Positions 5,997 through 60,315 of a stretch of DNA of 64,000 bases are shown here, in pieces. Source of the stretch: Heterodontus francisci. Taxonomy: Eukaryota. Position numbers and translations under genes: made by a program. A model generated the notes under the pieces. It was given only the letters and a program-made list of their open reading frames with translations, was not told where the DNA came from and made no database searches. The stretch spans positions 7,418,304 through 7,482,303 of the forward strand of contig NC_090418.1 in NCBI RefSeq assembly GCF_036365525.1, in the 5' to 3' direction. The first letter of the stretch is position 1. Each line of letters begins with the position of its first letter.

Positions 5997-6409
5997 TTCT
6001 CCATGGAAAGTGAATCAATTTGCAAACGGCAGGAGTTATTAACACGAGATTTTAATTAGCCATGACAGACACCCAGGAGAGATGTCTTTACTCAGTGGGT
6101 TCGCTGCAGAGTGGTAGATAGTTTCAGAAGCAGGATCAAACTAGTTTAATGAAAAGTGATTTCTTTCCACATGCCAGCACTTACCAGGAGACTTAAAGTC
6201 GGAGAATGAGAGAGGACAACGTGGAAGCTGTAACTTGAAGCGAGGGTTTGATGACTCATTTCCGCTTACGTTGTCACATCTCTCACTTTGTACTTGACAG
6301 TCCCTCCATTGGTCGCCTGACATGTCCATCACTACATGTCCCTATCTTCCCACAGCCAATGTCTGCACCTGATGTGATTGTCAAGAATCGTCAGTCAAAC
6401 AATATTCTC

Positions 6410-7400
6410 AATAGTATATTAATGATTTAGCTGAGAGAACTAAGTGTAATATCTCCAAATTTTCAGGTGACACAAAACTGGGTGGGAGGGTGAGTTGTGA
6501 GGAGGTTGCAGAGAGGCTTCAAGTTGATTTGGACAAGTTGAGTGAGTGGGCTAGTGCATGGCAGATGCAGTATAATGTGGATAAATGTGAGGTTATCCAC
6601 TTTGGTAGGAAAAACAGGAAGGCAGATTATTATCTGAATAGCTATAAGCTGAGACAGGGGAATATGCAGCGAGACCTGGGTGTTCTCGTACACCAGTCGC
6701 TGAAGGTAAGCATGGAGGTGCAACAGGCGGTAAAAAAGGCAAATGGTATTTTGGCCTTCATCGTGAGAGGATTCGAGTACAGGAGCAGGGATGTCTTGCT
6801 GCAATTATACAGGGCCTTGGTGAGGCCACACCTGGAATATTGTGTGTAGTTTTATAGTTTTGCTCTCCTTATCTGAGGAAGGATGTTCTTGCTATAGAGG
6901 GAGTGCAGCGAAGGTTTACCAGACTGATTCCTGGGATGGCGGGACTGACATATGAGGAGAGATTGAGTCGGTTAGGATTATATTCGCTGGAGTTCAGAAG
7001 AGTGAGGGGGGATCTCATAGAAACCTATAAAATTCTAACAGGACTTGACAGGGTAGATGCAGGAAGGATGTTCCCAATGGTGGGAGAGTCCAGAACCAGG
7101 GGTCATAGTCTAAGGATACGGGGTAAACCTTTCAGGACTGAGATGAGGAGAAATTACTTCACCCAGAGAGTGGTGAGCCTGTGGAATTTGTTACCACAGA
7201 AAGCAGTTGAGGCCAAAACATTGTATGTTCTCAAGAAGGAGTTAGATATAGCTCTTGGAGTGAAAGGGATCAAAGGATATGGGGGAAAGCAGGAACAGGT
7301 TACTGAGTTGGATGATCAGCCATGATCATAATGAATGGCCGAGCAGGCTCGAAGGGCCGAATGGCCTACTCCTGCTCCTATTTTCTATGCTTCTATGGTT
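6410..7400 (+). mobile_element. CR1-type LINE 3' fragment
   Basis: ORFs 6490-6849 and 6903-7325: WQMQYNVDKCEVIHFG, LYRALVRPHLEYCV, LEFRRVRGDLIETYKI. Confidence 0.9.
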
Positions 7401-16075: not shown

Positions 16076-16267
16076 GTAGAACTTGTGATCAATTTAGTTA
16101 CAGCTCAAACCCTTTCACAAGTAAGAGAGCGGCAGACTTCGAAATTTAACTGAGGAAACGGGGGAGAGAAATAATTCTAAATCTGATTTATTAATTTAAA
16201 CTTGTGTCAAAAATTAGTCAGTTGAAGTGGAGGAGAGAAAAGATTTTGGTTTGTTTCTTTTTGGAAA

Positions 16268-16958
16268 ATGGGTTTGAATTTGGTCAAGTCCATCAAGGCG
16301 GAGAAGGAGATGTCTTCGAGCCAGGGGCTGCAGCGCTTTCAAGGGCTGGGGGTGCCAACACCAGCCAGTTTGGACTTCTTGCTGGACCTGCCGCCGGTAC
16401 CCAGGGAGGTGCAAGACCGCCACGCTTGGAGCAGCTGGGACCGCTCGCCAAACATGTGCCCGTCGGAGGGCTCAGCGGAGAATTGCGAGCTTGCGGCCCG
16501 CCGGCGCCCGGTGCCCGACAGCACTGACTGCGTGCGGGGCAAGGTGGGCTACCGGCGGGGGCTCCACGTCTGGCAGGTGGGCTGGCCGCCCGGGCAGCGG
16601 GGCAGCCACGCCGCCGTGGGGGTGGGCACGGCCTGCGCCCGCCTCCAGTCGCCCGGCTACCGGGTGCTGCTGGGCGGCGAGGATGGCCAGTCGTGGGCGT
16701 GGGAGCTGGGGGGCAACCGGCTGCACCACGCCGGCAGAGCTGGCCGGCGGTACCCGGAGACGCCCGGGGCCCCGCTGGCCGTGCCCGAGAGATTCCTGGT
16801 CGTGCTGGATTCCGACGAGGGGACGCTGAGCTTCATGGTGGACGGAGAGTACCTGGGAGTGGCCTTCGACGGGTTGAAGGGCAAGACCTTGTATCCCATG
16901 GTCAGCTGCGTCTGGGGCAACACCAGAATAACCCTCACCTACGTTAATGGACTGGACA
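16268..16958 (+). CDS. SPRY domain and SOCS box protein (SPSB1/2/4 family), coding exon 1 (SPRY)
   Basis: LDFLLDLPP, STDCVRGKVGYRRGLHVWQV, QRGSHAAVGV, SWAWEL, VVLDSDEGTLSFMVDGEYLGVAF, LYPMVSCVWG; phase-1 donor GAC A|GTAAGT; GC/CpG-rich exon. Confidence 0.93.
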
Positions 16959-18819
16959 GTAAGTGAGCAAAGACGGGTACGGGCAGAAGAGGGTTCAGTT
17001 CATGCTTTGGGGGCGCAGTTGCTAATTCCGGCCGCAAATTAGAACCTTAGGACGGTTACGGCACCGAAGGAGGCCATTCGGCCCATCGTGTCCGTACTGG
17101 CTCTCCGAAAAACACAATTCCCTCACTTCCAACATTTTCTCTTCTGGTGCTTCCTTTTGAAAGCCCCGATTGGGAAACAACCCGATTGTAATTATCCTGA
17201 TTTTTTTTTTTAATTACTGAAAATGACCTTTAAAAAAAAACAGAGAACAGAACGGTTTTCGAGTTACACTGGATTGCAAACGCCTCAGTAAAGGCTTTAA
17301 AACAAAAAAAGGATCGCTTCAAAACCTTGTCAGTGCCCTAATGCTTAAAAAAAAAAGCCGGCTTGATTTCTGTTGGCGCTTTGAGGACCCGCACATGACC
17401 ACAGATAGCGCTGACCCCAAACTTGGAGTTCTATTCCTCCTTGAGGGGGGTCCAGTTTTGTAGATGGGGCGGGGGGGGGGGGGGGGGGTGGGGGGAAGAT
17501 CCTGCTTCCAGCACAATGCGTTTAAAACTAGCGCACACAAACAAATCGAGGAAATTCGAGTAGTGCTCAGAATTCCACTAATCGAGTAGAAACTCCAGAC
17601 CCACCGGACATTTCTGTCAGGTGCCAGTGTTCACTAGGGTGCTGTGCACAGTTTGCGATCAGTATTAAACTGGAGAAAGTGCAAGAATAGATGTACTGGA
17701 ATAATATCAGAACTGAGAGGCTGGGGCTCTTTTCTCTAGAAAAGAGAAGGCAGAGTTGTGGGGAAATGACCCCGATAGAGGTCTTTAAGATTATGAGAGG
17801 GTTCGATAAGGTAGACGTAGGGAAGACGGTTCCACTTGTGGGGGAGACCAGAACTAGGGGCCATCAATATAAGACAAACAGTCACAAATACATCCAGTCG
17901 GGAATTCGGGAAAACCGCTTTACCCAGAGAGATGCTGAGACTGGGACAGTAAGTAGCAAACAACGAGAGAAATAGAGGGAGAGTAAAAGACAGAAAGTGA
18001 GAGACACAGACAGAAAGAGAGAGAGGAGCGGACACAGTCATCTAGTTGTCAAGTTACCGCACCAGTCAGAATGAGATTTTGAATTCAGTTTAAATCACAT
18101 GATTAGAACAAGCTGGTATCAGTCAAAGTGACCCTGATACTTGTAAATAAACCTTTTCAGTGTCCTTGAACAAATAACTTGGCCTATACGTGACCCCAGT
18201 CAACAGCACAGGCTTTGTCAGTCAGACATGAGGCAGGCATGCGGGAGTCTGCACCCTTGGCGGAGTTACAGAACAGCAAAGGGTCTTCACCCCATGGTCG
18301 ATCAGCCACCGAGGCTGCCTAGGCTGATACTCGTTGCTTGGAAACTGTCAGCTCGTGGGCAATCCTGCAGGTGGTTGGCTAGCACTGTGTTAATACGCCA
18401 GGCATCTATTTTAAGATGGGGCAGGATTGGTGCGGAGGGAGCGGGGGGCGGTTTGAGGGGGGTGGGGTGGGGTAAAGTGAGAACGGGAATTCAGGGGGTC
18501 AGAGATAATTTTTTTTTGAAAGAAATCAGGTCCGGCCTTTGCCCGCCTGACTATTGAGCCGCCCGGGAGAGGGCGAGCCCGCGGGTGGCGAGGCAGCCTC
18601 CGGATGGAGCTCCTGCGCGATGCCCACTGCAGTCGAATAGGCTGGTGCCTGACCGCATTACCGGAGGGAAGCAGGGGTGGAGCAGCGGGGAGGTGTTGGG
18701 GGGAGGGGGTAAGAGGAGAGGAGTGGGGGGGGGGGGGGGGGGGGGAGGGAAAGCGGAGTCGAAAACGGACTTTAAGCCAGAAGAATCTCTTGCTGAGGGG
18801 TGGTCTCTCCGTTCCACAG

Positions 18820-18947
18820 GGCAGCCGCTGACTCTCGCTGATCTCTGCCGACGACGTATTCGGCAGGCGCTGGGGAAAGATCGAATCTCAGCAGTCGAGT
18901 CGTTACCACTGCCTCTCACCATCAAGACATATTTACAGTGCTCCTGA
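18820..18947 (+). CDS. SPSB coding exon 2 (SOCS box)
   Basis: Acceptor ctccgttccacag|; in frame with exon 1, giving GLDRQPLTLADLCRRRIRQALG...LPLPLTIKTYLQCS*; spliced protein 272 aa. Confidence 0.92.
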
Positions 18948-22772: not shown

Positions 22773-23011
22773 ACTTCTACATGTTCTGGACCTGCGCGTG
22801 ACTCCTGTTCCTTCGCTGCCCACTGAGCATGTCCTGCACATGAGACACATACACACACATACATACTCACAAATGTAGGTGATTGAGCAGTACAAGTTCT
22901 AGGTGGCTCTATGCTCACAGTTAGTGATTACCAGTTGCAGTTGAAATGTGCTACCTGTTACCTGTCTCTCTCTCTCTCTCTCTTACAGGTTGAGCTGCGG
23001 AGGTTACAACA

Positions 23012-23075
23012 ATGGTTGGACGATGGGTTTTGCTGCTTCTACTGTTGATGACGATCACTCTGAGCTCAGCAAAGA
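23012..23075 (+). CDS. Signal-peptide exon of a single-IgV, GPI-anchor-like protein
   Basis: MVGRWVLLLLLLMTITLSSAK plus phase-1 donor A|GTAAGT; upstream acceptor tcttacag at 22981-22988 implies a non-coding first exon. Confidence 0.85.
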
Positions 23076-24364
23076 GTAAGTATTTCCATTGGGTTTACCC
23101 TCCGGCCCAATCTACCCCTCCGCACTTTTTGTCACCTCTGGACTTGACCTTTCCAAGGCATTCCTAACCGGCCTCCCACATTCTACCCTCCAAAAACTCG
23201 AGGGCATCCAAAAGTCTGCTGCCCCATGTCCCAACTCACACCGAGTCCCTTTCATCCCTCAGCCCCTGTGCTCACTGATCTAAACTGCATCCCAGTCCAG
23301 TAACACATCAATTTTAAAATTCTCATCCTCGTTTTCCAATCCCTCAGTGGCCTCCTCCCTCCCTAGCTCTGTATCCTCCTCCTCCTCCTCCTCCTGCCAA
23401 AACCCTCCGAGATCTCTGCGCTCCGCCAATTCTGGCCTCTTTCCATCGTTGAGCCTTTTATTGAACAACCAAGGCGAATCCAATTGGGTAATTCAGAGTG
23501 TTCGCTTTCTGATTGGCCGTGGCAAGGTAGGGCAGCGTGAGGATTGACGTGTCAGTCGGCCAATGGTGGGAGAGGATGGGGGAGGGTGCGTGGCTGTCTG
23601 GGGGACGTCATGTGATGGATCCTGCCAGAAGGCGTCCAACCAGAATTGTCGGCCTTACCAAAAGGTGCCACGCGCTCATCCCGCCAAGAGAAAGAGGTTC
23701 AATGCCAACCTGAACCCCCCCCCCCCCCCCCCCACAAAATAGCTGAGACATGCCGCGGTAATGCTGAGGTGGGATCAAGACAAACGGCTGGGACGAGCCC
23801 CAAATAAACTAGTGGGAATTGTAGACTCGCAACTGGCTCCAGTTGAGCAATAGGAAGATGGAAGCCCTCGGCTCCAGACCGCAGCACTGTCTCTGTTCCC
23901 TCGCTGCTTAATCTGACAGAGGGGAAGAGGAGTAACAGTACAGTGAGGGACAGCGTGAAACGGTAGAGTGGGAGTGAATCCCAGCTCATGGTGTTTAACG
24001 AGCGACACCCGCAGAGCAAGACTGGTCAATGACGTGTGTCCGGGCTGGAGGAGGTGCAGGAATTGGGGCTACGTGTCCTGAGAGCAAGTGGGGACCTGCA
24101 GCATCTAGTTCCCCATTATCCCACATCCCATACCACCCCTATCAGCAAACCCATCATTCCATCCACCGCCTTCTGTCCCCAGCAACTGAATCGTCTCGCC
24201 AGGCAAAGATCCCGCCTGATGCAAGTAGCTCGTTGAGGTCTGTTCACAGTTTGGTTTGTCCCAGGTGCTCTCCCTTGGTGATGGTGTGTGTGCGTGTGTG
24301 TGTGTGCGCATGTGTGTCAGACCCATGAGCATGTGTGCTTGTGAGCCAAGTGTGCTCTCTCAAT

Positions 24365-26440
24365 AACCCTGAGTGTGAATTCTCGGTAACTCCAAGTGTC
24401 AGCTCTAAGTAACTCCGAGTGTGAACTCTCAGTTATCCTGAGTGTGAACTCTCAGTTACCCCGAGTGTGAGTTCTCAGTAACTCCGAGTGTGAGTTCTCA
24501 GTAACTCCGAGTGTAAGTTCTCAGTAACTCCGAGTGTGAACTCTCATTAACTCTGAGTGTGAACTCTCATTAACTCTGAGTGTGAACTCTCAGTAACTCC
24601 GAGTGGGAACGCTCAGTAACTCTGAATGGGAACTCTCAGTAACTCCGAGTGTGAGTTCTCAGTAACTCCGAGTGTGAGTTCTCAGTAACTCCGAGTGTGA
24701 ACTCTCATTAACTCTGAATGGGAACTCTCAGTAACTCCGAGTGTGAGTTTCCAGTAACCCCGAGTGTGAGTTCTCAGTAACCCCGAGTGTGAACTCTCAG
24801 TAACTCCAAGTGTGAGTTTCCAGTAACTCCAAGTGTGAACTCTCAGTAACTCCGAACGTGAACTCTCAGTAACTCCGAACGTGAACTCTCAGTAACTCCG
24901 AATGTGAACTCTCAGTAACTCCGAGTGTGAGTTATCAGTAACTCCGAGTGTGAGTTATCAGTAGCTCCGAGTGCGAGTTCTCAGTAACTCCGAGTGTGAG
25001 TTATCAGTAACTCCGAGTGTGAGTTATCAGTAGCTCCGAGTGCGAGTTCTCAGTAACTCCGAGTGTGAGTTCTCAGTAACTCCGAGTGTGAGTTCTCAGT
25101 AACTCTGAGTGTGAACTCTCAGTAACTCTGAGAGTGAGTTCTCAGTAACTCTGAGTGTGAACTCTCAGTAACTCCGAGTGTGAGTTATCAGTAACTCCGA
25201 GTGTGAGTTATCAGTAGCTCCGAGTGCGAGTTCTCAGTAACTCCGAGTGTGAGTTATCAGTAACTCCGAGTGTGAGTTATCAGTAGCTCCGAGTGCGAGT
25301 TCTCAGTAACTCCGAGTGTGAGTTCTCAGTAACTCTGAGTGTGAACTCTCAGTAACTCTGAGAGTGAGTTCTCAGTAACTCTGAGAGTGAGTTCTCAGTA
25401 ACTCTGAGTGTGAATTCTCAGTAATTCTGAGTGTGAGTTCTCCATAACTCCGAGTGTGAACTCTCAGTAACTCCGAGTGCGAGTTCTCAGTAACTCTGAG
25501 TGTGAGTTCTCAGTAACTCTGAGTGTGAACTCTCAGTAACTCTGAGAGTGAGTTCTCAGTAACTCTGAGAGTGAGTTCTCAGTAACTCCGAGTGTGAATT
25601 CTCAGTAATTCTGAGTGTGAGTTCTCCATAACTCCGAGTGTGAACTCTCAGTAACTCCGAGTGTGAATTCTCAGTAACTCTGAGTGTGAACTCTCAGTAA
25701 CTCTGAGTGTGAACTCTCAGTAACTCCGAGTGTGAGTTATCAGTAACTCCGAGTGTGAGTTATCAGTAGCTCCGAGTGCGAGTTCTCAGTAACTCCGAGT
25801 GTGAGTTATCAGTAACTCCGAGTGTGAGTTATCAGTAGCTCCGAGTGCGAGTTCTCAGTAACTCCGAGTGTGAGTTCTCAGTAACTCCGAGTGTGAGTTC
25901 TCAGTAACTCTGAGTGTGAACTCTCAGTAACTCTGAGAGTGAGTTCTCAGTAACTCTGAGTGTGAACTCTCAGTAACTCCGAGTGTGAGTTATCAGTAAC
26001 TCCGAGTGTGAGTTATCAGTAACTCCGAGTGTGAGTTATCAGTATCTCCGAGTGCGAGTTCTCAGTAACTCCGAGTGTGAGTTATCAGTAACTCCGAGTG
26101 TGAGTTATCAGTAGCTCCGAGTGCGAGTTCTCAGTAACTCCGAGTGTGAGTTCTCAGTAACTCTGAGTGTGAACTCTCAGTAACTCTGAGAGTGAGTTCT
26201 CAGTAACTCTGAGAGTGAGTTCTCAGTAACTCTGAGTGTGAATTCTCAGTAATTCTGAGTGTGAGTTCTCCATAACTCCGAGTGTGAACTTTCAGTAACT
26301 CCGAGTGTGAATTCTCAGTAACTCTGAGAGTGAGTTCTCAGTAACTCTGAGTGTGAATTCTCAGTAATTCTGAGTGTGAGTTCTCCATAACTCCGAGTGT
26401 GAACTCTCAGTAACTCCGAGTGTGAATTCTCAGTAACTCC
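24365..26440. repeat. 23-bp tandem minisatellite (about 90 units), intronic
   Basis: Unit actccgagtgtgagttctcagta with recurring variant blocks; ends at the polypyrimidine tract of the V exon. Confidence 0.97.
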
Positions 26441-26463
26441 GTGTGTTTATCCCTTTGCTGCAG

Positions 26464-26832
26464 TCTTGCTGCAGTGCACACGGCATGTGAAGGAGGTGAC
26501 TGCGAAGAGTGGTGGGTCGGTGATGTTGCCCTGCAGCTTTAACTGGACGGAGCCTATTCCCGGGAAGCACCGAGCAGTTTGGCAGAAGAATATCATGGGG
26601 GGTTCTCCTCTGGTGGTTTATGAATGGGATTCGGCAGAAGAGGACAAAGGCCCGGGCAACGAGTTCATGGGACGCACCTTCATGGCGGCAAATTGGTTTG
26701 AGAAGAGAGACCCTTCGCTGAACCTGACTGATGTGTCATTGAACGACACGGGGATCTACGAATGTTACATCGTCACCCAGCGCCCCCACTCCTCGGGCCT
26801 CTGCGCTGATATCAGGCTGACGGTTTTTCCAG
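26464..26832 (+). CDS. IgV exon, B7/butyrophilin/MOG-like V domain
   Basis: Acceptor ccctttgctgcag|, donor G|GTGAGG (phase 1-1); GGSVMLPCSF, AVWQK, EFMGRT, PSLNLTDV, DTGIYECYI; extra Cys in LLQC and GLCAD; sequons NWT, NLT, NDT. Confidence 0.9.
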
Positions 26833-27401
26833 GTGAGGAATTTGACTGGCGCCCTGTCTCCACCAACTGCCTGGCACCCGTGATGTAATGATGCTGGTTG
26901 TGGGGGCGGGGGGGCTGGGGGTGGTGCCCTCACCGGTATCCACTTTGCCATTCGACTGTGGGAGGCATCGCATTGTGCACCCGGCATCCAACCAATTGGG
27001 AGGTTGGTGGAGGGAGGGGCTGGCGGGTTGGGAGGGAGGGACTGAGTGCAAGTAGTGAGGAATCGCAGTGATGGAGCTGCCTGTTCGTGTAGTATGAAGG
27101 GACAAATATCACTCTCCTCTCTCTCTCTCTCTCTCTCTCCCCTATTGCTCTCATCACTCTATCTCTTATTCTATCTCTCTATCTCCCCCCTTCTCTCCCT
27201 CTATCTCTTTCTCCCACTCCTTCTATCTCCTCTCTTTCTCTCCCCTCTTCTCTCTCTCTCTCTCTCTCCCTCCGCCTCCATGCTTCTTCACCCTGGTGAC
27301 CCACTGTTGAGTGTCAGTAGTCTGGGGGAGAATGTATGCGGGGGGGGTGGGGAGCGGGAGTTGGGGTTCGAGAAACACATGATCCATTTGGTTTGCTTTA
27401 G

Positions 27402-27484
27402 GTTACACAGGAGCTGCTGAAGTGACAACAGTTCCCAGCGTTCTCCTGCTAACTGGCCTGGCCTTCGTTCCCTTCTTCAGCTGA
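27402..27484 (+). CDS. Terminal exon with GPI-anchor-like signal
   Basis: Acceptor gtttgctttag|; phase 1 gives GYTGAAEVTTVPSVLLLTGLAFVPFFS*: small residues, spacer, hydrophobic end, no cytoplasmic tail; precursor 171 aa. Confidence 0.72.
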
Positions 27485-28469
27485 CGAGAGTCCGAATAGT
27501 TCACACCAGGTCAGTGACGAGGCAACGCGACCTCTCCTCTGTCCCCCCGGCCCTGCTCCCTCCTTCCCTCTCCCCCTTCCCCTCCCATTTCCCTCTCAAC
27601 CTCCCCTCCTTTCCCCACCCACTCCCCCTTACCCTGAAGTTCCATTAACTGTTTTTTTCTCTCGCTACAAAGGCTGCCAGACCTGCTTTGTATTCCGAGC
27701 CTCTCGGGGTCTCTCCAGATTGTTGAGTCCCTCATCCCTGGTGCCGTTCTGGGAAACCTCCTCTGTACCCACTCCAAGGCCTTGCCATTCTTCGCAAAGT
27801 GTTTAAGCCCCTTGCCCAACCGTTTTAGATTGAAGTTTGCCTTGTCCACGCTCTTGACCATTTTGTGTCAGTCACCAGGTTTCAGTGGGTTTGCCATTGT
27901 TCACCAGCCCCAGCGGATCTCAGGAATCTCAACATAAGAACAACATAAGAAATAGGAGCAGGAGTAGGCCATTCAGCCCCTCAAGCCTGATCCACCATTC
28001 ACTAAGATTATGGCTGATCTGACCTCCACTCAACTCCACTTTCCCTCCTTTTCTCCACAAACCTTGACTCCCCTATAGTTCAAAACTCTATCTCAGCGTT
28101 GAGTATATTCAATGACCCAGCCTCCACTGCTCTCGGTAGGGGTGGGGGAGAGAATCCCAAAGATTCACGACCCTCGGAGAGAAGACATTCCTCCTCATCT
28201 CCGTCTCAAACGGGTGAGCCCTTATCCTGAGCAAGAGATGGGGGAAACTCAACATTAAAGAGAGGTTAGCACATTCCCTAGATGGAGTACAGCCTGTCTG
28301 TCCTGGGTTGTAGTGTTTTGAAAATTGTATTGTGCCTTTTGTTCACTTGAGGCTACCAAACACACACATTAGAAATTGGAGATTGTGTTTGACACACACG
28401 GGAAGCTTGTATATACCCACACATTGATCTCTCCAAGAAAAACATCCAATCAGAAGAAATTTTAGTCTC

Positions 28470-39601: not shown

Positions 39602-42462
39602 TTTTTTTTTTATTTCCAAAATATACTTTATTCATAAAAATCTGTAAAAATTACATTGCCAAACAGTTTCCAAACAGCACCAAAAAATACAAACATTGCA
39701 AAAGAGATCAGTTTCTTTCAATAATGTCATGAGTTTCTTCCCAACCCTTCCGTTTCACAATTGTCATGTCAATTACAGTTTTACATTTACAGCAATTGAG
39801 AATATTAACGATACAGTTCGAGGGGTTTCCCATGGATCCAGCCCCTCAGTCCAGCTTGGTGGGGGAACCTTACACTGTGGTCTTTCCCCATTGAGCCTTT
39901 GCTGCGGCTGCCCCAAGCTTTAGTGCGTCCCTCAGCACGTAGTCCTGGACCTTGGAATGTGCCAGTCTGCAACATTCGGTGGTGGACAACTCTTTGCGCT
40001 GGAAGACCAGCAAGTTTCGGGCAGACCAAAGGGCGTCTTTCACCGAATTGATAGTCCTCCAGCAGCAGTTGATGTTTGTCTCGGTGTGCGTCCCTGGGAA
40101 CAGCCCGTAGAGCACAGACTCCTGTGTTACAGAGCTGCTTGGGATGAACCTTGACAAAAACCACTGCATCTCTTTCCACACCTGCTTTGCAAAGGCACAT
40201 TCCAGGAGGAGGTGGGCGACCGTCTCTTCCCCACCACAGCCAACGCGGGGGCACTGTGCGGAGGGGGCGAGACTTCGGGTGTGCATGAAGGATCTGACGG
40301 GGAGGGCCCTTCTCACCACCAGCCAAGCTACGTCTTGGTGCTTGTTTGAAAGTTCTGGTGATGAGGCATTCCGCCAAATGACTTTGACGGTCTGCTCGGG
40401 GAACCACCCGACAGGATCCACCGTTTCCTTTACCCGTAGGGCCTTGAGGACATTCCGTGCAGACCACTGCCTGATGGACCGGTGGTCAAAGGTGTTTTTC
40501 CGCAGAAACTGCTCCACGAAGGATAGGTGGTACGGCGCCGCCCAACTGCACGGAGCGTTCCGCGGCAATGTGACCAGGCCCATCCTTCGCAACACCGGGG
40601 ACAGATAGAACCTCAGCACGTAGTGACACTTGGAGTTTGCGTACTGGGGATCTACACATAGCTTGATGCAGCCGCACACGAAGGTGGTCATCAGGATGAG
40701 GGCCACGTTGGGTACATTTTTCCCGCCCATGTCCAGAGATTTGAACATCGTGTCCCTCCGGACCCGGTCCATTTTAGATCCCCAGACGAAGCGGAAAATG
40801 GCTCGGGTGACTGCCACGGCGCAGGAGTGGGGTATGGGCCAGACCTGCGCCACGTAGAGCAACAACGTGAGCGCCTCGCACCTGATGACCAGGTTCTTAC
40901 CCACAATGGAGAGAGATCGCTGCCCCCACATGCCCAACTTTTGTCGTACCTTGGCTACTCGCTCCTCCCATGTTTTGGTGCACGCCCCGGCCCTTCCGAA
41001 CCATATCCCCAGCACCTTCAGGTAATCTGACCTGACGGTGAAGGGGACAAAGGATCGGTCAGCCCAGTTCCCAAAGAACATGGCCTCGCTCTTGCCGTGG
41101 TTAACTTTGGCTCCCGAGGCCAGTTCGAACTGGTCGCAGATGCTCATCAGTCTGCGCACGGACAGCGGATCCGAGCAGAAGACGGCGACGTCATCCATGT
41201 ACAGGGAGGTTTTGACCTGAGTGCCTCCACTGCCTGGGATTGTCACCCCTCTTATGCTCGCATCCTTCCTAATAGACTCAGCAAAGGGTTCAATACAGCA
41301 AACAAACAAGACCGGGGACAGAGGACAGCCCTGTCTGACTCCAGATTTGATCGGGAAACTTTCAGATTCCCACCCGTTGATTGACACTGCGCTACTGATG
41401 TTTGTGTAGAGCAGTTGGATCCAATTGCAGATTCCCTCCCCAAACCCCATTTTGGAAAGCACGTCCATCATGTAGGTGTGCAATATCCTGTCAAAAGCCT
41501 TCTCCTGGTCCAGGCTGATGAGGCAGGTGTCCACCCTCCTGTCCCGTACGTAGGTGATCGTATCCCTGAGTAGCGCGAGGCTATCAGAGATCTTCCTGCC
41601 GGGTACAGTACAGGTCTGATCGGGGTGAATCACCAGCTCCAGAGCAGACTTGACTCGACTGGCTATGACTTTGGACAGAATCTTGTAATCAACATTAAGC
41701 AGTGAGATGGGCCGCCAATTTCTGATTTCTATCCTCTCCCCCTTCTGCTTGTAAATGAGGGTGATGATGCCTTTTCTCATGGATTCTGACATGCTGCCGG
41801 CCAGGAGCATACTCTCGTATACTTCCAGCAGGTCCGGGCCGACCCAGTCCCACAGGGCCGAGTACAACTCGACCGGTAAGCCGTCGCTCCCGGGAGTTTT
41901 ACTCGTCTCGAAAGACTCGACGGCCTTTGTCAGCTCGTCCAGAGTTAGCGGCTTGTCCAGTCCCTCCCTCCTGCTGTCATCTAAGACCTCTGTGATAGAT
42001 GACAGGAAGGACTGGGAGGCTCTGCTGTCTGTGAGCTTCGCGTCATACAGCCCAGCATAAAAGGATTTGCTGATCCTTAGTATGTCGGACTGCGAAGACG
42101 TTACCGAGCCATCTTCTTCCTTCAGGCTGCTGATAACAGAGCTCTCTCTGTGTACCTTTTGGAAGAAGTAACGCGAGCACGTCTCATCCTGCTCGATGGA
42201 GCGGACTCTGGACCGGAAGATGATCTTGGAGGCCTCCTTGGCAAAGAGCGAGGCCTGCTGGCTCTTCACCTCTTGGAGGTCCTCCTTGACCTCGACCCCC
42301 ATTGACTGCAACCGGAGTAGATTTTGCATAATTTTCTGGAGTCGGGACAGTTCCCTCTGTCTCTCTCTCTCGCCTTCTGAACACCTTTGTGGATGAAGAA
42401 CCTCTTGATGTTCTCCTTAATCGCTTCCCACCAGTGAACTGGAGACTCAAAGAGGGGTTTCA
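39602..42462 (-). mobile_element. 5'-truncated Tx1/L1-clade LINE with an intact RT and zinc-knuckle ORF
   Basis: 819-aa ORF 39870-42329 (KTPGSDG, NWRPISLLNVDYK, DQEKAFD, GVRQGCPLSP, YMDD, CPRVGC...ETVAHLLLEC); poly(A) at 39602-39611, AATAAA at 39627-39632 (minus strand); 17-bp TSD GGACAATGGGCCAGGAC at 39585-39601 and 42463-42479. Confidence 0.95.
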
Positions 42463-44812: not shown

Positions 44813-45445
44813 GGGTTTGGGTGTTTATATAGAGAATAACAGATACCCAGGAGTGTGTTACAGGTGGGTATTTCAAATACAGAATTCCTCTATTACTGGG
44901 AGTATTCTGGAGGTAGTTGTCTGTTGGTTGAGAGACTGATTGTGATTCCTTAATAACCATTTGCTGTTTCCTCTCTCAATGATGATAAATGGAATTCGTT
45001 TCCGAGTGTCCCAGCCCCCCGGCCTGGAGGCTGTGGTAGGGAAGTCGATCATTATTTGCTGTTCATTCACTTACCCAGAAAACTACACACCCCAAAATAT
45101 TGACATTTATTGGAGACGACATTATTTTCACGGAGAATTTATATTCAACACCTCAAAGGGGTACATTCACCCTGATTACTGAGGCCGGATTGAATTCCTG
45201 GGTTCTCCAAATAAAGGGAAGGCCTGCTCCATCAGGATAAATCAGCTGAAACTGTCGTGTGGTGACATCAGGAAACAAAACCATGATGTGGCAAAGAGTA
45301 AATGGGTCATTCCTCACTGTCCGAGGTAAACGACATTCCCATTTCTCAAACTTGACAACGTTAGGAACTGGTCTGTTCATCCCACATAGCAAAAGATGAT
45401 CTGCCTAATGCAGCTGTCACCTTGACACCTGGGACATCTCCGAAA

Positions 45446-45808
45446 CCGACACTCCTGTCTGTCCAGGGTCCCCGACACAGACACTCCCGTCTGTCCAGGG
45501 GGACACTGACACTCCTGTATGTCCAGGGTCCCTGACACAGACACTCCCGTCTGTCCAGGGGGACACCGACACTCCTGTCTGTCCAGGGTCCCCGAAACTG
45601 ACACTCCTGGCTGTCCAGGGTCTCCACCACTGACACTCATGTCTGTCCAGGGTCCCCGAAACTGACACTCCTGGCTGTCCAGGGTCCCCGACACAGACAC
45701 TCCCCTCTGTCCAGGGGGACACCAACACTCCTGTCTGTCCAGGGTCTCCACCACTGACACTCCTGTCTGTCCAGGGTCCCCGACACTGACACTACTGTCT
45801 GTCCAGTG
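45446..45808. repeat. 32-bp minisatellite (short array)
   Basis: Unit acactcctgtctgtccagggtccccgacacag. Confidence 0.9.
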
Positions 45809-45844
45809 TCTGTAATACTGAGTATGTTCCCTGTGTAATAGAGT

Positions 45845-46166
45845 GATACAGCATGGAAACAGGCCCTTCAACCCATTGAGTCTGTGCCGAACATCAACAA
45901 CCCATTTATTGTAATCCTACATTAATTCCAAATTCCCACATTCCCTCAATTCTCCTACCACCTACCTACACGAGGGACAATTTACATTGGCCAATTTACC
46001 TATCAACCTGCAAGTCTTTGGCTGTGGGAGGAAACCGGAGCACCCGGCAGAAACGCACGCGGTCACAGGGAGAACTTGCAAACTCTGCTCAGGCAGCACC
46101 CAGAATTGAACCTTGGTCGCTGGAGCTGGGAGGCTGTGTTGCTAACCACTGCGGCACTGTGCCACC
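45845..46166 (-). mobile_element. V-SINE in pseudogene intron 2
   Basis: HE1-like; absent at the equivalent position (about 54825) of the intact copies. Confidence 0.85.
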
Positions 46167-47830
46167 CCAGTAACTGGAGTGTCACTGTGCTCCTGGATTT
46201 TGTCCGCATTCCTATTTCCACATCATTGCTGTGGATTTCTGTATTTCACAGCGCGGGAGCCCCAAACTACAACAGCCCAGTTAACCTCCTCACTGACTGC
46301 AACATCTCCAGAAGGCGACAAACTGGGCCAGTGGGTGATCCTAATAATCAGGTCCATGCTCGCACTGGGAATACTGACGGTTGTTTGGCTGATTGGAATT
46401 TATCTGATGAGGAGGAAGAAAGTTACGGGTAATCTGAGTATTCTGACTTCATTTGTAGTTATTTAGATAAATGTGATGCTTTTTTAAAGAAGATCTGGTG
46501 TCCCTCAATAAAACCAGTGACCATCCCCCAATGTACAATCTCTGTATGACTGGGCTCCCAACATCACTACAGCCTTGGTGCAAACTGAGGTGAAATCCAG
46601 AGGTGAGGTGAGAGTGACTGCCCTTGACATCAAGGCAGCATTTGACCGAGGGTGGCATCAAGGAGCTTGGCAAAACTGGAGTTAATGGGAATCAGAGGGA
46701 AAAACTCTCCACAGGTTGGAGTCATACCTAGCACAAAGGAAGATGGTTGTGGTTGTTGGAGGTCAATCATCTCAGACCCAGGACATCTCTGCAGGAGTTC
46801 CTCAGGGTAGTGACCTAGGTCAAAACAGCTTCTGCTGCTTCATCAATGACCTTTCTTCAGTCATAAGGTCAGAAGTGGTGATGATGGCTAGTGATTGCAC
46901 AATGTTCAGTAGCATTAACAACTTTTCAAGATACGGACGTAGTCCGTGGTTGCAATTGAGAAACCTGGCTGTAAAGTCAACCGTCATCGATTGGGAAACC
47001 AGCAAAGTCAAAAAGGGTGAAAGGAAGAAGAGGTTTATCAAGGAGTGGTGGGTTGGTGATACAAGGGTTGGGTTTTCAAAGCCATTGGTTGGACGAGGAA
47101 GGGAAGAGCGCGTGTGGTGAGGAGCTTGGGACGGAAGAGTTTGGAAACCTCAGAGGGACGATGACCATTATAGTATCACCAAAATAGACATAGAGGAGAT
47201 GTAGAGAGAGTGAAGGTGACTGGAGGTGAGAGAGGGGTCCATCAAAACACAACGAGCATCCCGTGGCATGAGTGCAGAGATACTGGACTAGTGGGGTCAT
47301 GCGCCCAGGGCTGCGTCCAGGGGCGCAGTTGGCAAATTGCCTCCAAAATGGACCCGACACTAACCCCCACCTGGCTGAAGTGAAATTGTCTCAATTTGAA
47401 GAGCTTTCCGGAAGCTCTGCAAACAGGTACAATTGATGGGAACTTGCCAATCCCAATATTTCAATCTGGCAGCATGGGCAGTTCTGTGGGTGAGGAGGGC
47501 AATAATTTCAAACCCCGCGTTCAGAGCAGAAACCCAATTTACACCTGACGTCACTTACGGTTAATATTCCTCGACCTTAGGCACTGATTCCACCGATTTC
47601 ACCTCTTTGCCGCTGCTTACACAGGCCCCAAACAGGACAAACTCGAAGACAATGTAGTGATGGGTATCACTCCTTTACACCTAAGATTCCCCGATCTTTT
47701 AACACTAACTTTCCTCGGCCACGCTCGGATTTTAGCTGTTGTCTGGGAAGAAATCAGACGGAAGCTCAGAGCCCAGATCTGAGAGAGGAGGAGGGACTTG
47801 ATATGAAGAGATAATTTCCCAATTGGAGAC

Positions 47831-47925
47831 GGAAGTGGAACCAGAGAAATAGGAAGGAGAAAAACAGAACTAACTGGTCAGAAATAGTGAGTGTGTCACA
47901 AAGGCCGTCTCAGTATCCTGTGGTC
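47831..47925 (+). promoter_or_regulatory. Putative PILR-like promoter (ETS GGAAGTG, RUNX TGTGGTC)
   Basis: GGAAGTG at 47831-47837 and TGTGGT at 47919-47924, 45-140 nt before the ATG; repeated at +8651; ETS core reads GGATGTG in the two defective copies. Confidence 0.45.
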
Positions 47926-47969
47926 TGTGAAGCCTCCTTCAGACTCACAGAGTGAGATGAGTAGCTGTC

Positions 47970-48012
47970 ATGGACTCTGTTCTCCATCTGATCATTCTGC
48001 ATCTCTCCGTCA
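47970..48012 (+). CDS. PILR-like receptor copy A, leader exon
   Basis: MDSVLHLIILHLSV plus A|GTGAGC (phase 1); joins the V exon as ...LSVMMINGNDFRV. Confidence 0.8.
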
Positions 48013-49057
48013 GTGAGCAAACCAAATTTTATTTTCCTTTCTCGAGTTTCGTGCCTCCATTTTAACATCCCTGCTCTATCCATGCAGTCCCTCCCAGGGG
48101 CCTCCCACAGCTGCTCCTGGCTTTCCATTTAACACATGGATTAATCAATTGCCACCAATGTGATGCCCACCCAAGTTGAAGAGTATAGGAGGGGGAACAA
48201 CAAGAACAGCAGGAAAACCTCCCAAGGTGCTCGCCAGAGGCATACGCAGAAAAGGGGCACAGTGCCAAAGCAGATATTAGGAGGAGTAACCCAAAGATAG
48301 GTCAATGAGGTGGGTCTTGAAGACAGAGAGAGGCAGAGACGTTTTAGGGATGGAATTCCAGAGTTGCGGAATGAGATGGCTGAGGGCACAGACCATAATG
48401 TTGGGGCAAAGGGAGTGAAGTCAGCACAAGAGACCGAAATTGGAAGAATGCAGATATGTCGGAGGGTTGTCGGGCTGGAGGAGGTTACAGAGATAGGGAA
48501 GGGAGGAATCGAGACCATGAAAGGATTTAAAGACGAGGATGAGAATTTTACACTGGGGGCTTTGGTGGTCTGGGAGCCAGTGTAGGTCAGCAAGCACAGT
48601 GAGAGGGGAGGTGACTGGGTGAACAGGAATTGGAGTGGATAGGGTACAGTACAGCAGAGGTTTGACAGATGAGTTGAAGGTTAAGGAAGGTGGAGGATGG
48701 ACAATGGGCCAGGACTGATCAGGAAGTCGTGGTCAAGATAATCGAACTGTGGTTTTTAAAACTGAAAAACAGAAATGGAGAGAGTAGGGAGGGCTCCACA
48801 TTACAGTCATGGAGAAGTAACGGGCGGTTTAACACTGCGGGCACCTGGTGTCGTGTCCCTGATGGTGATGGGTGAGGGGTGGGAGGGGATTCAGTAACAC
48901 AGAGAGATTAGACCAGGAGCCTGTCCAAGGCCAACTCCCAGTCACTCCCCCAGACACAAACATCGGGTACAAAGCAACATTTGTAGAGCACAAGAGGCAA
49001 CCATAGAGACCGCCTCGAAACCAGGAAACAGTGGGAAAGAACAGAAAAAGAGGAATT

Positions 49058-51612
49058 TACAGGCTGGAATCTAATGCAGCGATACAATGTAGTTTATATA
49101 TGGAATAACAGATACCCGGGAGTGAGTTACAGACTGGAATTTAATCGAGGGGTTCGGGGGGTTTAAATACAGAATAACAGATACCCGGGTGTGAGTTACA
49201 GACTGGAATCTAATCAAGGGGTTCGGGGTTTTTTTTATATCGAATAACAGATAACCGGCGGTAAGTTACAGACTGGAATCTAATCGAGGGGTTCGGGGGG
49301 TTTATATAAGGAATAATAGATACCCGGGAGTGAGTCACAGACTGGAATCTAATCGAAGGGTTCATGCGGTTTATATATAGAATAACAGATATCCGGGAGT
49401 GAGTCACAGACTGGAATCTAATCGGGGGTTCAGGGGGTTTATATATAGAATAACAGATACCCGGGAGTGAGTTACAGACTGGAATCTAATCGAGGGGATC
49501 GGGGGTTTATATATAGAATAACAGATACCCGGGTGTGAGTTACAGACTGGAATCTAATCGAGGGGTTCGGGGGGTTTATATATAGAATAACAGATACCCG
49601 GAAGTGAGTTACAGGCTGGAATCTAATCGAGGGGTTGAGGGGGTTTATATATAGAATAACAGATACCCGGGAGTGAGTTACAGACTGGAATCGTATCGAG
49701 GGGTTCAGGGGGTTTATATAAGGAATAATAGATACCCGGGAGTGAGTCACAGACTGGAATCTAATCGAAGGGTTCATGCGGTTTATATATAGAATAACAG
49801 ATATCCGGGAGTGAGTCACAGACTGGAATCTAATCGAGGGGTTCGGGGGGTTTATATATGGAATAACAGATACCCAGGAGTGAGTTACAGACTGGAATCT
49901 AATCGAGAGGTTCAGGGGGTTTATATATAGAATAACAGATACCCAGGAGTGAGTTACAGACTGGAATCTAATCGAGGGGTTCGGGGGGTTTATATATGGA
50001 ATAACAGATACCCGGGAGAGAGTTACAGGCTGGAATCTAATCGAGGGGTTGAGGGGGTTTATATATAGAATAACAGATACCCGGGAGTGAGTTACAGACT
50101 GGAATCGTATCGAGGGGTTCAGGGGGTTTATATATAGAATAACAGATACCCAGGAGTGAGTTACAGACTGGAATCTAATCGAGGGGTTCGGGGGGTTTAT
50201 ATATGGAATAACAGATACCCGGAAGTGAGTTACAGGCTGGAATCTAATCGAGGGGTTCAGGTGGTTTATATATAGAATAACAGATACCCAGGAGTGAGTT
50301 ACAGACTGGAATCTAATCGAGGGGTTCGGGGGGTTTATATATGGAATAACAGATACCCGGAAGTGAGTTACAGGCTGGAATCTAATCGAGGGGTTCAGGT
50401 GGTTTATATATAGAATAACAGATACCCAGGAGTGAGTTACAGACTGGAATCTAATCGAGGGGTTCAGGGGGTTTATATATAGAATAACAGATACCCAGGA
50501 GTGAGTTACAGACTGGAATCTAATCGAGGGGTTCGGGGGGTTTATATATGGAATAACAGATACCCGGAAGTGAGTTACAGGCTGGAATCTAATCGAGGGG
50601 TTCAGGGGGTTTATATATAGAATAACAGATACCCAGGAGTGAGTTACAGACTGGAATCTAATCGAGGGGTTCAGGGGGTTTATATATAGAATAACAGATA
50701 CCCAGGAGTGAGTTACAGACTGGAATCTAATCGAGGGGTTCAGGGGGTTTATATATAGAATAACAGATCCCCAGGAGTGAGTTACAGACTGGAATCTAAT
50801 CGAGGGGATCGGGGGGTTTATATATGGAATAACAGATACCCGGGAGAGAGTTACAGACTGGAATCTAATCGAGGGGTTCAGGGGGTTTATATATAGAATA
50901 ACAGATACCCGGGAGTAAGTTACAGACTGGAATCTAATCGAGGGGATCGGGGGGTTTTTATATAGAATAACAGATACCCGGGAGTGAGTTACAGACTGGA
51001 ATCTAATCAAGGGGATCGGGGTGTTTATATATAGAATAACAGATACCCGGGAGTGAGTTACAGACTGGAATCTAATCGAGGGGTTCGGGAGGTTTATATA
51101 TGGAATAACAGATACCCGGGAGAGAGTTACAGACTGGAATCTAATCGAGGGGTTCAGGGGGTTTATATATAGAATAACAGATACCCGGGAGTAAGTTACA
51201 GACTGGAATCTAATCGAGGGGATCGGGGGGTTTTTATATAGAATAACAGATACCCGGGAGTGAGTTACAGTCTGGCATCTAATTGAGGGCTTTGGGGGTT
51301 TATATATAAAATAACAGATACCCGGGAGTGAGTTACAGACTGGAATCTTATCGGGGGGTAAGCGGGGTTTATATATGGAATAACAGATACCCGGGAGTGA
51401 GTTACAGACTGGAATCTAATCGAGGGCTTTGGGGGTTTATATATAAAATAACAGATACCCGGCAGTGAGTTACAGACTGGAATCTTATCGGGGGGTTTGC
51501 GGGGTTCATATATAGAATAACAGGTTACCCAGGAGTGAGGTACAGACTGGAATCTAATCGAGGGGTTCGGGGGTTTATATATAGAATAACAGGTACCCAG
51601 GAGTGTGTTACA
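49058..51612. repeat. 69-bp satellite array (about 37 units) in intron 1
   Basis: Tandem 69-bp units. Confidence 0.97.
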
Positions 51613-51664
51613 GGTGGCTATTTCAGATACAGGATTCCTCTATTACTGGGAGTATTCAGGAGGT

Positions 51665-51793
51665 TCCGAAGAAGGGTCACTGACCCGAAACGTTAACTCT
51701 GCTTCTCTTTCCACAGATGCTGCCAGACCTGCTGAGTGATTCCAGCATTTCTTGTTTTTGTTTCAGATTTCCAGCATCCGCAATATTTTGCTT
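51665..51793 (+). mobile_element. Short Penelope terminal-repeat insertion with hammerhead-like core
   Basis: CCGAAGA-A-GGGTCA C TGACCC-GAAACGTTAAC; flanked by GTATTC(A/T)GGAGGT at 51652-51664 and 51794-51806; empty site at about 44902-44914. Confidence 0.75.
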
Positions 51794-51873
51794 GTATTCT
51801 GGAGGTAATTGTCTGTTGGTTGAGAGACTATTTATGATTCCTTAATAACCATTTGCTGTTTCCTCTCTCTCAG

Positions 51874-52242
51874 TGATGATAAATGGAAATGATTTCCGTG
51901 TGTTCCAGCCCCCCAGCCTGGAGGGGGTGGTCGGGCAGTCGATCATTATTCGCTGCTCATTCACTTACCCAGAAAACTACACACCCCAAAAGATTGACAT
52001 TTCTTGGAGAAGACTTAATTTTCACGGAGAATTTATATTCAACACCTCAAAGGGGTACATTCACCCTGATTACCGAGGCCGGCTTGAATTCCTGGGTTCT
52101 CCATATAAGGAGAAGACCGGCACCATCAGGATAAATCAGCTGAAGCTTAGTGACTCGAACCAGTATTCCTGTCGTGTGGTGACATCAGGACACAGACCCG
52201 AGATGTGGCAAAACATCCCTGGGACATTCCTCTCAGTCCGAG
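51874..52242 (+). CDS. PILR-like receptor copy A, IgV exon
   Basis: Acceptor ctctctcag|, donor G|GTAAAC; FRVFQP, GQSIIIRCSFTYP, ISWRRLNFHG, IHPDYRGRL, IRINQLK, YSCRV, WQNIPGTFLSV parallel the PILR motifs. Confidence 0.88.
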
Positions 52243-52362
52243 GTAAACGACATTCCCATTTCTCAAACTTGACAACGTTAGGAACTGGTCTGTTCATCCC
52301 ATATAGCAAAAGATGATCTGCCTAATGCAGCTGTCACCTTGACACATGGGACATCCCCGAAA

Positions 52363-54803
52363 CGACACTCCTGTCTGTCCAGGGTCCCCGACACAGACAC
52401 TCCTGTCTGTCCAGGGTCCCCGACACAGACACTCCTGTCTGTCCAGAGTCCCCGACACAGACACTCCTGTCTGGCCAGGGTCACCGACACAGACACTCCT
52501 GTCCGTCCAGAGTCCCCGACACAGACACTCCTGTCTGGCCAGGGTCCTCGACACAGACACTCCTGTCTGTTCCGGGTCCCCGACACAGACACTCCTGTCT
52601 GTCCAGGGTCACCGACACAGACACTCCTGTCTGGCCAGGGTCACCGACACAGACACTCCTGTCTGGCCAGGGTCCCCGACACAGACGGTCCTGTCTGTCC
52701 AGGGTCCGCTACACAGACACTCCTGTCTGTCCAGTGTCCCCGACACAGACACTCCTGTCTGTCCAGTGTCCCCGACACAGACACTCCTGTCTGTCCAGCG
52801 TTCCCGACACAGACACTCCTGTCTGTCCAGGGTCCCCGACACTAACAATACTGTCTGTCCAGGGTCTCTGACACAGACACTCCTGTCTGTCCAGGGTCAC
52901 CGACACTCCTGTATGTCCAGGGTCCCTGACACAGACACTCCTGTCTGTCCAGGGTCACCGACACAGACACTCCTGTCTGTCCAGGGTCCCCGACATTGAC
53001 ACTCCTGTCTGTCCAGGGTCCCCGACACTGACACTCCTGTCTGTCCAGGGTCACCGACACAGACACTCCTGTCTGTCCAGGGTCCCCGACATTGACACTC
53101 CTGTCTGTCCAGGGTCCCCGACATTGACACTCCTGTCTGTCCAGGGTCCCCGACACTAACAATACTGTCTGTCCAGGGTCTCTGACACAGACACTCCTGT
53201 CTGTCCAGGGTCACCGACACTCCTGTATGTCCAGGGTCCCTGACACAGACACTCCTGTCTGTCCAGGGTCACCGACACAGACACTCCTGTCTGTCCAGGG
53301 TCCCCGACACTGACACTCCTGTCTGTCCAGGGTCCCCGACACTGACACTCATGTCTGTCCAGGGTCCCCGACACAGACACTCCCCTCTGTCCAGTGTCCC
53401 CGACACAGACACTTCTGTCTGTCCAGGGTTCCCGACACAGACACTCCTGTCTGTCCAGGGTTCCCGACACAGACACTCCTGTCTGGCCAGGGTCCTCAAC
53501 ACAGACACTCCTGTCTGGCCAGGGTCCCCGACACAGACACTCCTGTCTGGCCAGGGTCACCGACACAGACACTCCTGTCTGGCCAGGGTCACCGATACAG
53601 ACACTCCTGTCTGGCCAGGGTCCTCGACACAGACACTCCTGTCTGGCCAGGGTCCCCGACACAGACACTCCTGTCTGGCCAGGGTCACCGATACAGACAC
53701 TCCTATCTGGCCAGGGTCCCCGACACAGACGGTCCTGTCTGTCCAGGGTCCGCTACACAGACACTCCTGTCTGTCCAGTGTCCCCGACACAGACACTCCT
53801 GTCTGTCCAGCGTTCCCGACACAGACACTCCTGTCTGTCCAGGGTCCCCGACACCGACACTTCTGTCTGTCCAGGGTCCCCGACACAGACCCTCTTGTCT
53901 GTCCAGGGTCCCCGACACAGACACTCCTGTCTGTCCAGGGTCCCTGACATAGACACTCCAGTCTGTCCAGGGTCCCCGACACAGACCCTCTTGTCTGTCC
54001 AGGGTCCCCGACACCGACACTCCTGTCTGTCCAGGGTCCCCGACACCGACACTCCTGTCTGTCCAGGGTCCCTGACATAGACACTCTTGTCTGTCCAGGG
54101 TCCCCGACACAGACACTCCTGTCTGTCCAGGGTCCCTGACATAGACACTCTTGTCTGTCCAGGGTCCCCGACACCGACACTCCTGTCTGTCCAGGGTCCC
54201 TGACATAGACACTCTTGTCTGTCCAGGGTCCCCGACACAGACACTCCTGTCTGTCCAGCGTTCCCGACACAGACACTCCTGTCTGTCCAGGGTCCCCGAC
54301 ACCGACACTCCTGTCTGTCCAGGGTCCCCGACACAGACCCTCTTGTCTGTCCAGGGTCCCCGACATAGACACTCCTGTCTGTCCAGGGTCCCCGACACCT
54401 ACACTCCTGTCTGTCCAGGGTCCCCGACACCGACACTCCTGTAGTCCAGGGTCCCTGACATAGACACTCTTGTCTGTCCAGGGTCCCCGACATAGACACT
54501 CCAGTCTGTCCAGCGTCCCTGACACTGACACTCCTGTCTGTCCAGGGTCCCCGACACAGACACTCCTGTCTGTCCAGGGCCCCCGACACAGACACTCCTG
54601 TCTGTCCAGGGCCCCCGACACAGACACTCCTGTCTGTCCAGGGTACCCGACACAGACACTCCTGTCTGTCCAGGGTACCCGACACAGACACTCCTGTCTG
54701 TCCAGGGTCCCCGACACAGACACTCCTGTCTGGCCAGGGCCCCCGACACAGACACTCCTGTCTGTCCAGCGTTCCCGACACAGACACTCCTGTCTGTCCA
54801 GTG
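52363..54803. repeat. 32-bp minisatellite (about 76 units) in intron 2
   Basis: Unit acactcctgtctgtccagggtccccgacacag. Confidence 0.97.
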
Positions 54804-60263: not shown

Positions 60264-60315
60264 GGTGGCTATTTCAGATACAGGATTCCTCTATTACTGG
60301 GAGTATTCAGGAGGT

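Follow-up and report, generated by a model that had tools for sequence, protein, structure and literature searches.

Analysis of a 64,000-nucleotide (nt) stretch of the Heterodontus francisci genome (contig NC_090418.1, positions 7,418,304 to 7,482,303 of the forward strand; here called the window) revealed a three-exon gene whose predicted product carries one immunoglobulin (Ig) V domain and a C terminus of the glycosylphosphatidylinositol (GPI) type. The coding exons are located on the forward strand at positions 23012-23075 (64 nt), 26464-26832 (369 nt) and 27402-27484 (83 nt) of the window. They have GT/AG ends and phase-1 junctions, and together they form an open reading frame of 171 amino acids plus stop. 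The ATG at 23012 is the first in-frame ATG 3' of an upstream stop and lies in a strong Kozak context. The window gene is real and spliced.

The signal-peptide exon (22989..23075) comprises a 5' untranslated region (UTR) from an acceptor at about 22989, the ATG and a phase-1 donor. Since this exon starts at its own acceptor, a non-coding exon likely lies upstream. Intron 1 (23076..26463) has GT..AG ends; most of it is taken up by a short-period tandem array (about 24380-26440) that extends to the V exon's branch region. The V-domain exon (26464..26832) is defined by a Pfam V-set match, an AlphaFold2 model, alignments and RNA contigs. Intron 2 (26833..27401, GT..AG) is followed by the last coding exon (27402..27509), which contains the stop at 27482-27484 and a second in-frame acceptor at 27411.

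Contigs from four runs, X1 to X4, support this structure. The runs are not recorded as RNA runs, and their contigs were treated as RNA-derived because GT..AG introns are skipped in them. In the X1 contig (1045 nt, depth 8.95), positions 22992-23075, 26464-26830 and 27400-27512 correspond to record positions 852-769, 768-402 and 401-289. No letters stand between the three exon blocks, both introns are absent, and three differences from the genome were counted in total. The blocks came from two answers, and the single record is deduced from equal length, depth and strand. In X2 to X4, three runs of one sample from a related organism, the V exon is joined to the in-frame acceptor at 27411, 9 nt further on, so that 578 nt with GT..AG ends are skipped. 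In all four contigs the match to the genome stops at 27512, close to a GT donor at 27510, and the contig itself continues, which indicates a likely 3'-UTR intron 25 nt past the stop.

An initial annotation of this DNA, made from the sequence alone, had proposed three in-phase exons encoding a 171-residue precursor. This structure was confirmed by the exon ends, the phase-1 joins and the RNA contigs, and the predicted junctions 23075^26464 and 26832^27402 appear in X1 as adjoining exon blocks. A simple acceptor scan of the forward strand from the V exon to position 46000 found no Ig C-domain exon, and a V-domain profile scan found no further Ig exon between the V exon and the PILR-like genes described below. 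The RNA contigs connect the V exon directly to the GPI-type exon, and the V + C + transmembrane layout typical of B7 proteins is not present.

Protein features and the C-terminal end

The V exon matches the Pfam V-set profile with an E value of 1.1e-10, and the AlphaFold2 model of the V domain has a predicted local distance difference test (pLDDT) score of 90.8. Cysteines are located at positions 26, 45, 122 and 135. Cys45 and Cys122 represent the canonical pair and are accompanied by Trp61. Cys26 on the A strand and Cys135 on the G strand are additional, and Trp99, between the D and E strands, is a residue of the family. The initial annotation had described one V domain with two extra cysteines, in the A strand and at the start of the G strand; both are present and conserved across the family. 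A second disulfide, Cys26-Cys135, would tie the A strand to the G strand. N-glycosylation sequons are found at positions 48, 108 and 115. The signal peptide proposed earlier is consistent with a hydrophobic leader, judged by eye, that is encoded on its own phase-1 exon and kept in the orthologues; it would be removed near residue 21.

The C terminus comprises a candidate omega site (Gly148, followed by two alanines), a polar spacer and a 14-residue hydrophobic end without a cytoplasmic tail. Gly148 lies 23 residues from the end, and no charged residue occurs among the last 15. An omega-like Gly or Asp with Ala at +2, located 23 residues from the end, was found in 6 of 6 orthologues (four computed, Heptranchias and Hemitrygon counted by hand); the spacing of the tail-less end noted at the outset is fixed among them. 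The insertion-energy sum was +3.3 for the hydrophobic end of the window protein; three transmembrane controls gave -2.6, -5.0 and +1.1. All four family genes on the contig share a GPI-type ending. A rule-based reading of the omega and omega+2 residues, the spacer and the hydrophobic end indicates that the protein is likely GPI-anchored at the cell surface. The anchor would be attached at Gly148 and would replace the last 23 residues. Splicing, together with conservation across six species, lends strong support to the combination of a single V domain with a GPI-type end.

Orthologues, family and related V domains

Protein searches revealed orthologues of the window gene as uncharacterised RefSeq models in the sharks Cetorhinus (XP_078390009.1), Heptranchias (XP_067828258.1, 'VTCN1-like') and Rhincodon (XP_048476177.1) and in the rays Mobula (XP_062904813.1) and Hemitrygon (XP_072905008.1); names such as 'VTCN1-like' are automatic annotation. 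The earlier description of the gene as hidden was therefore overstated. The protein of Heterodontus francisci itself was not among the matches of the protein searches checked for it. The elasmobranch orthologues have an identical layout (signal peptide, one V domain, candidate GPI site, no tail) and the same C-terminal spacing. Their V domains are 48-62% identical to that of the window protein (three compared), and the three residues contributed by the upstream acceptor in the window protein are missing from them.

Analysis of 176 stored proteins, isoforms included, identified 23 with a family signature consisting of the A-strand Cys, the D-E Trp and the G-strand Cys; the extra Cys pair was complete in all 23. 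A family profile was trained on 14 sequences. Family V domains scored 115-165 bits, with six unseen non-isoform members at 115-136 bits, and the best full non-family domain reached 65.5 bits. Among genome loci, four family exons scored 132-169 bits and the next-best locus 60. Family domains as a whole thus lie at 115-169 bits and non-family domains at no more than 66 bits.

The four family genes, the window gene and three paralogues, are located on the same contig (C48), with V exons at 6.240, 7.266, 7.416 and 7.445 Mb (the last being the window gene). The paralogues have the architectures V + second Ig + GPI-type end, V + GPI-type end, and V + stalk + GPI-type end. One of them, XP_067879830.1 (C48:7417980-7413862, reverse strand), is positioned just before the window and combines a V domain, an atypical Cys-rich second Ig domain and a GPI-type end. 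Its isoform X1 has a hydrophilic first exon (window about 6180-6330, reverse strand) in place of the signal exon. In Heptranchias, the adjacent models P0143 and P0157 have near-identical V domains, one with a GPI-type end and the other with a transmembrane segment and tail.

Members were also found in salamanders. 'CD276-like' proteins of Pleurodeles (XP_069072352.1) and Ambystoma carry the same family signature and fall inside the family clade, with 29% identity over 118 residues (E 3e-18). The salamander members consist of a V domain and a second Ig domain. Two of three (Pleurodeles and a Logan protein) have a transmembrane segment and tail, and the Ambystoma isoform shows no clear membrane segment. 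They cluster with one paralogue, paralogue B, and not with the window gene. These sequence comparisons place the window protein in an old family of its own, with GPI-type and transmembrane members, in sharks, rays and salamanders. The representative-protein search showed 150 of 9868 matches, mostly multi-domain proteins, and the word-based searches are insensitive, so that absence of the family from teleosts and amniotes cannot be read from them.

Phylogenetic trees were calculated from 61 rows and from 36 rows after removal of near-copies and three long rows. The outgroups were of the B7/butyrophilin (BTN) type and covered part of the B7 members, without CTX, VISTA, Thy-1 or CD160 sequences. 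The family clade had support of 100/97 in the 61-row tree and 97/95 in the 36-row tree, and the orthologue group of the window gene had support of 98/94 and 96/97, respectively. The family was separate from armadillo HHLA2 and from the other, presumably B7/BTN-type V exons of the same genome, and in this sampling orthology to a named B7 member (B7-H3, B7-H4, HHLA2 or others) was not found. BTN-type V exons on contig C29 also form a different clade. Since the trees hold only B7/BTN-type outgroups, they demonstrate distinctness from the sampled B7/BTN domains and not descent from B7.

Comparison of the family profile with single-domain entries of the Protein Data Bank (PDB) gave B7-H4 as the best match (55 bits), followed by CAR (50), B7-H3 (50) and PD-L1 (48). 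An Atlas feature search with the whale-shark orthologue placed VTCN1, BTN1A1-like and HHLA2 clusters on top. The Thy-1 cluster ranked tenth (score 0.91) with 161 shared features, where 170 are given as typical for the same family. Thy-1, CD160 and VISTA were not among the PDB and fold matches listed, which excludes none of them.

Linked receptor genes and the modelled complex

The contig was read at 6.22-6.28, 7.246-7.276 and 7.280-7.502 Mb. In these intervals the four family V exons lie scattered among V exons of CD28H-like receptors and PILR-like genes. Six receptor-type V exons with a Pro-bearing F-G loop, of the non-rearranging type (L060, L065, L067, L062, L066 and L059), are distributed over four loci at 6.271, 7.300, 7.341/7.343/7.345 and 7.391 Mb, and each locus has an uncharged transmembrane exon. 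The trio of V exons at 7.34 Mb may encode a single receptor with three domains. The V exon at 7.391 Mb shows the pattern YYC-x6-PTP..GKGNGT; the E-I-P motif is absent from it, its closest relatives at other genomic loci have EIPPP or SLPPP loops, and a tail exon was not found at the locus. In the available part of PMC11599192, CD28-family membership is defined by a single V domain, a Pro-rich F-G loop, GxG, a transmembrane segment and a tail tyrosine motif, and E-I-P(-P-P) is given for CD28H and CD28HL. The same part places CD28H and CD28HL in other synteny blocks and does not mention PILR, SPSB or GPI. The receptors of this contig therefore seem to fall outside the nine published CD28-family members.

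A complex of the window V domain with the 7.391-Mb receptor V domain, encoded 50 kb away, was modelled with ESMFold2. The interaction prediction score from aligned errors (ipSAE) was 0.70, 0.77 and 0.77, compared with 0.01 for the best of three controls. Contacts agreed by at least 95%, and partner pLDDT was at least 84. Among microbial pairs, 51 of the 78 solved ones and 2 of the 108 mismatched ones came up to the mark used for ipSAE; for eukaryotic pairs the figures were 39 of 65 (solved) and 2 of 126 (unrelated). The modelled interface comprises ligand residues 60, 62, 65, 67-72, 75, 121, 123, 125, 127, 128, 130 and 132 of the C, C', F and G strands, and the F-G loop (ERPTPIK) of the receptor. 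All three sequons lie outside it. B7-1 and B7-2 grip the MYPPPY loop of CD28 and CTLA-4 with the same geometry.

Comparison with a second organism, organism B, revealed differences at 34 of 366 letters of the V exon and 3 of 105 letters of the last exon (p 0.04). The ratio of nonsynonymous to synonymous substitution rates (dN/dS) was 0.8-1.4, calculated with 31 of the 34 differences listed; it is not significantly above 1, and positive selection was rejected as a claim. Of the 17 modelled interface residues, 6 carry an amino-acid change, compared with 16 of the 104 remaining residues (p 0.058). Relative to the related species, 16 of 22 changes fall in residues 52-91, a stretch picked after inspection. 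This divergence pattern suits an immune surface molecule and does not prove selection.

According to the model, the window protein would act as a B7-type ligand whose front C-C'-F-G face grips the F-G loop of a CD28H-like receptor, with the glycans directed away from the front sheet. Lacking a cytoplasmic tail, it would signal only through the receptor on another cell, and a phospholipase could shed it. The modelling favours, with modest confidence, the window protein as a ligand of the linked receptor. The initial annotation had suggested an unusual B7-like ligand or decoy. The ligand part of this suggestion gains a candidate partner in the linked CD28H-like receptor. The window protein belongs to an old family of its own and is not a derivative of one known B7 member.

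Several results weigh against this reading. A single-sequence PDB search places MXRA8 and CAR above B7-H4, and in the VIA-align fold search CAR is first (Z 16.7, root-mean-square deviation 2.2, 116 residues aligned). The family groups with no sampled B7/BTN V domain, and each tree contains one long-branch intruder inside the family clade, a different one in each. With respect to the complex, 7 of 44 blind neighbour pairs also reached the mark. Since B7/CD28-family complexes have already been solved, the pass of the model may reflect memory. One of the six receptor V exons was modelled, the family gene at 7.416 Mb lies nearer to this receptor than the window gene, and the pass does not tell which ligand pairs with which receptor.

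The fold results raise the question of whether the protein instead mediates adhesion, as a GPI-anchored molecule of the CTX/CAR/JAM/nectin type that binds itself or a paralogue through the front face and has no co-signalling role. CAR is also the top match in Foldseek, and the profile score of JAML is good. However, ICOS-L (16.0), B7-H6 (15.8), B7-H3 and VSIG4 (both 15.7) follow within 1 Z of CAR, the Atlas features favour VTCN1, BTN and HHLA2, and the family genes are interspersed with CD28H-like receptors, one of which passed in the complex model. Such an adhesion role is unlikely. The protein might also function as a decoy: its V domain, either GPI-linked or shed, would compete with a transmembrane member of the family or capture a pathogen adhesin, and no signal would be delivered. 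A decoy function would agree with the coexistence of transmembrane and tail-less versions in the family, including the near-identical Heptranchias pair, and with the clustering of changes in residues 52-91 and at the modelled interface. It appears improbable, since dN/dS is not significantly above 1 and the proteins of this orthologue group lack a tail in all 6 species, with no transmembrane twin among the proteins found.

Two further alternatives concern the anchor and the identity of the gene. The hydrophobic end might be a short tail-less membrane anchor, or might be cleaved for secretion, in which case no GPI would be attached; according to the available part of PMC3817299, the GPI status of B7-H4 itself rests on partial sensitivity to phosphatidylinositol-specific phospholipase C. 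The fixed omega-like spacing in the six orthologues, the length of 14 residues and the lack of basic stop-transfer residues make this quite improbable. The window gene could also be the shark orthologue of Thy-1 or CD160. This proposal draws on the shared layout of a single V domain and GPI and on the tenth Atlas rank of Thy-1, but the 161 shared features fall short of the number typical for one family, and the match ranks below the B7/BTN clusters. In addition, the extra disulfide of Thy-1 runs from A' to the end of G and not from the start of A to the start of G. Both the C-strand Trp and a 'GRT' motif of B7-like type on the D strand are retained in the family, and some of its members are transmembrane proteins with two domains, so that orthology with Thy-1 or CD160 is very improbable.

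The exon structure and its splicing, the conservation across species, the placement in the family and the linkage of the genes are observed. The best joint explanation is a three-exon, 171-residue single-V precursor, likely GPI-anchored, that would serve as a B7-type ligand of a CD28H-like receptor of the cluster; as a whole this is somewhat more probable than not. Lymphocytes receive their second signal through B7 ligands and CD28-family receptors. More tentatively, the cluster may represent an ancient and undescribed co-signalling system, in which B7-related ligands with an A-G disulfide form a family encoded beside its own CD28H-like receptors, which are not among the nine published CD28 members. 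The system would be inherited from the jawed-vertebrate ancestor, mostly with GPI in sharks and rays and with transmembrane segments in salamanders, and apparently be absent from mammals. The available part of PMC11599192 states that the ligands of the extra shark CD28H-like receptors are unknown. The linked cluster, with four B7-related ligand genes, four receptor loci and one modelled pair, provides a direct set of candidate pairs. If the reading is true, the B7 toolkit would gain a tail-less lipid-anchored design, along with a gnathostome-wide family that goes unnamed in the searched literature; if binding fails, the protein is still a GPI-type Ig surface protein, conserved but otherwise ordinary. 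No published description of the family was found in the searched literature, which lacked the main B7 evolution paper (it may list members). The available main text of PMC12227049 and PMC3964593 contained nothing relevant.

Other loci were observed on further contigs and in the window. On contig C10, a B7-type V exon at 82.26 Mb (L036), weakly grouped with HHLA2, lies about 250 kb from a CD28H-like V exon of the EIPPP type at 82.52 Mb (L068), and the two represent a second linked candidate pair of ligand and receptor. Clusters of presumably B7-type, near-identical V exons and presumably butyrophilin-type V exons are located at C28:33.6-36.0 Mb and C29:3.0-12.1 Mb, respectively. Tandem PILR-like genes (PILRA, E 1e-17) occupy about 44946-64000 of the window and C48:7487906-7490631 (forward strand), with one partial and three full V exons at 7.463-7.488 Mb. 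Two of the units, 8651 nt apart, are 98% identical, as a result of either recent duplication or assembly duplication; both have the F-strand motif QYSC, not QYYC, with the Cys retained. A two-exon SPSB gene (SPRY and SOCS box) is positioned at 16226-18947 of the window (forward strand). It gave 231 and 226 bits with SPSB1 and SPSB4 versus 186 with SPSB2, closer SPSB-type genes are present on C11 and C37, and the gene could represent a fourth SPSB ohnologue absent from mammals. A reading of the region as 12p13/SPSB2 was dropped, because this gene is nearer to SPSB1/4 and because TIM and gamma-enolase-like genes lie on other contigs. TP53 was not found in a search bearing on a 17p13/7q22 reading, which therefore draws only on a marginal beta-enolase match and the PILR-like genes. 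The window further contains an 848-residue frame resembling a retrotransposon reverse transcriptase (39870-42416, reverse strand) and shorter fragments like long interspersed nuclear elements (865-1863 and 6415-7325).

Comparison with known systems

The CTX-type V domains of CAR/CXADR, VSIG4, MXRA8 and JAML are top or tied matches of the window protein in fold and sequence, with an identity of only about 20%. These proteins are transmembrane, mostly with a second Ig domain. Thy-1 (CD90) and CD160 combine a single V domain with GPI, and their extra disulfides are at positions other than those of the window protein; the resemblance to them that was pointed out in the initial annotation holds for the layout and for nothing beyond it. 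Butyrophilins have V, C and transmembrane parts and a B30.2/SPRY tail. This arrangement was not found in the tail-less window protein, and the neighbouring SPRY gene is the separate SPSB gene and not part of the V gene.

Members of the B7 family (VTCN1/B7-H4, CD276/B7-H3, PD-L1, ICOS-L and B7-H6) gave the best single-domain matches to the profile and share tied places in the fold search. The B7/BTN likeness seen at the outset is thus upheld at the level of sequence by the profile and Atlas searches, whereas by fold it is not unique, and the phylogeny suggested as a check separated the family from the sampled B7/BTN domains. The available part of PMC11599192 describes a V + C ectodomain with a transmembrane segment as typical of the B7 family, with VISTA as the accepted single-V exception. 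According to the part of PMC3817299 available, VISTA (B7-H5) is a B7-related single IgV protein with additional cysteines, three in number, and B7-H4 has been proposed to be GPI-anchored; unlike the window protein, VISTA has a cytoplasmic tail. The window protein differs from the B7 family in the lack of a C domain, in the extra A/G Cys pair and the D-E Trp, and in its separate clade. Its mode of action most plausibly resembles that of a B7 ligand, but it departs from the B7 family in the V + C + transmembrane layout and in orthology.

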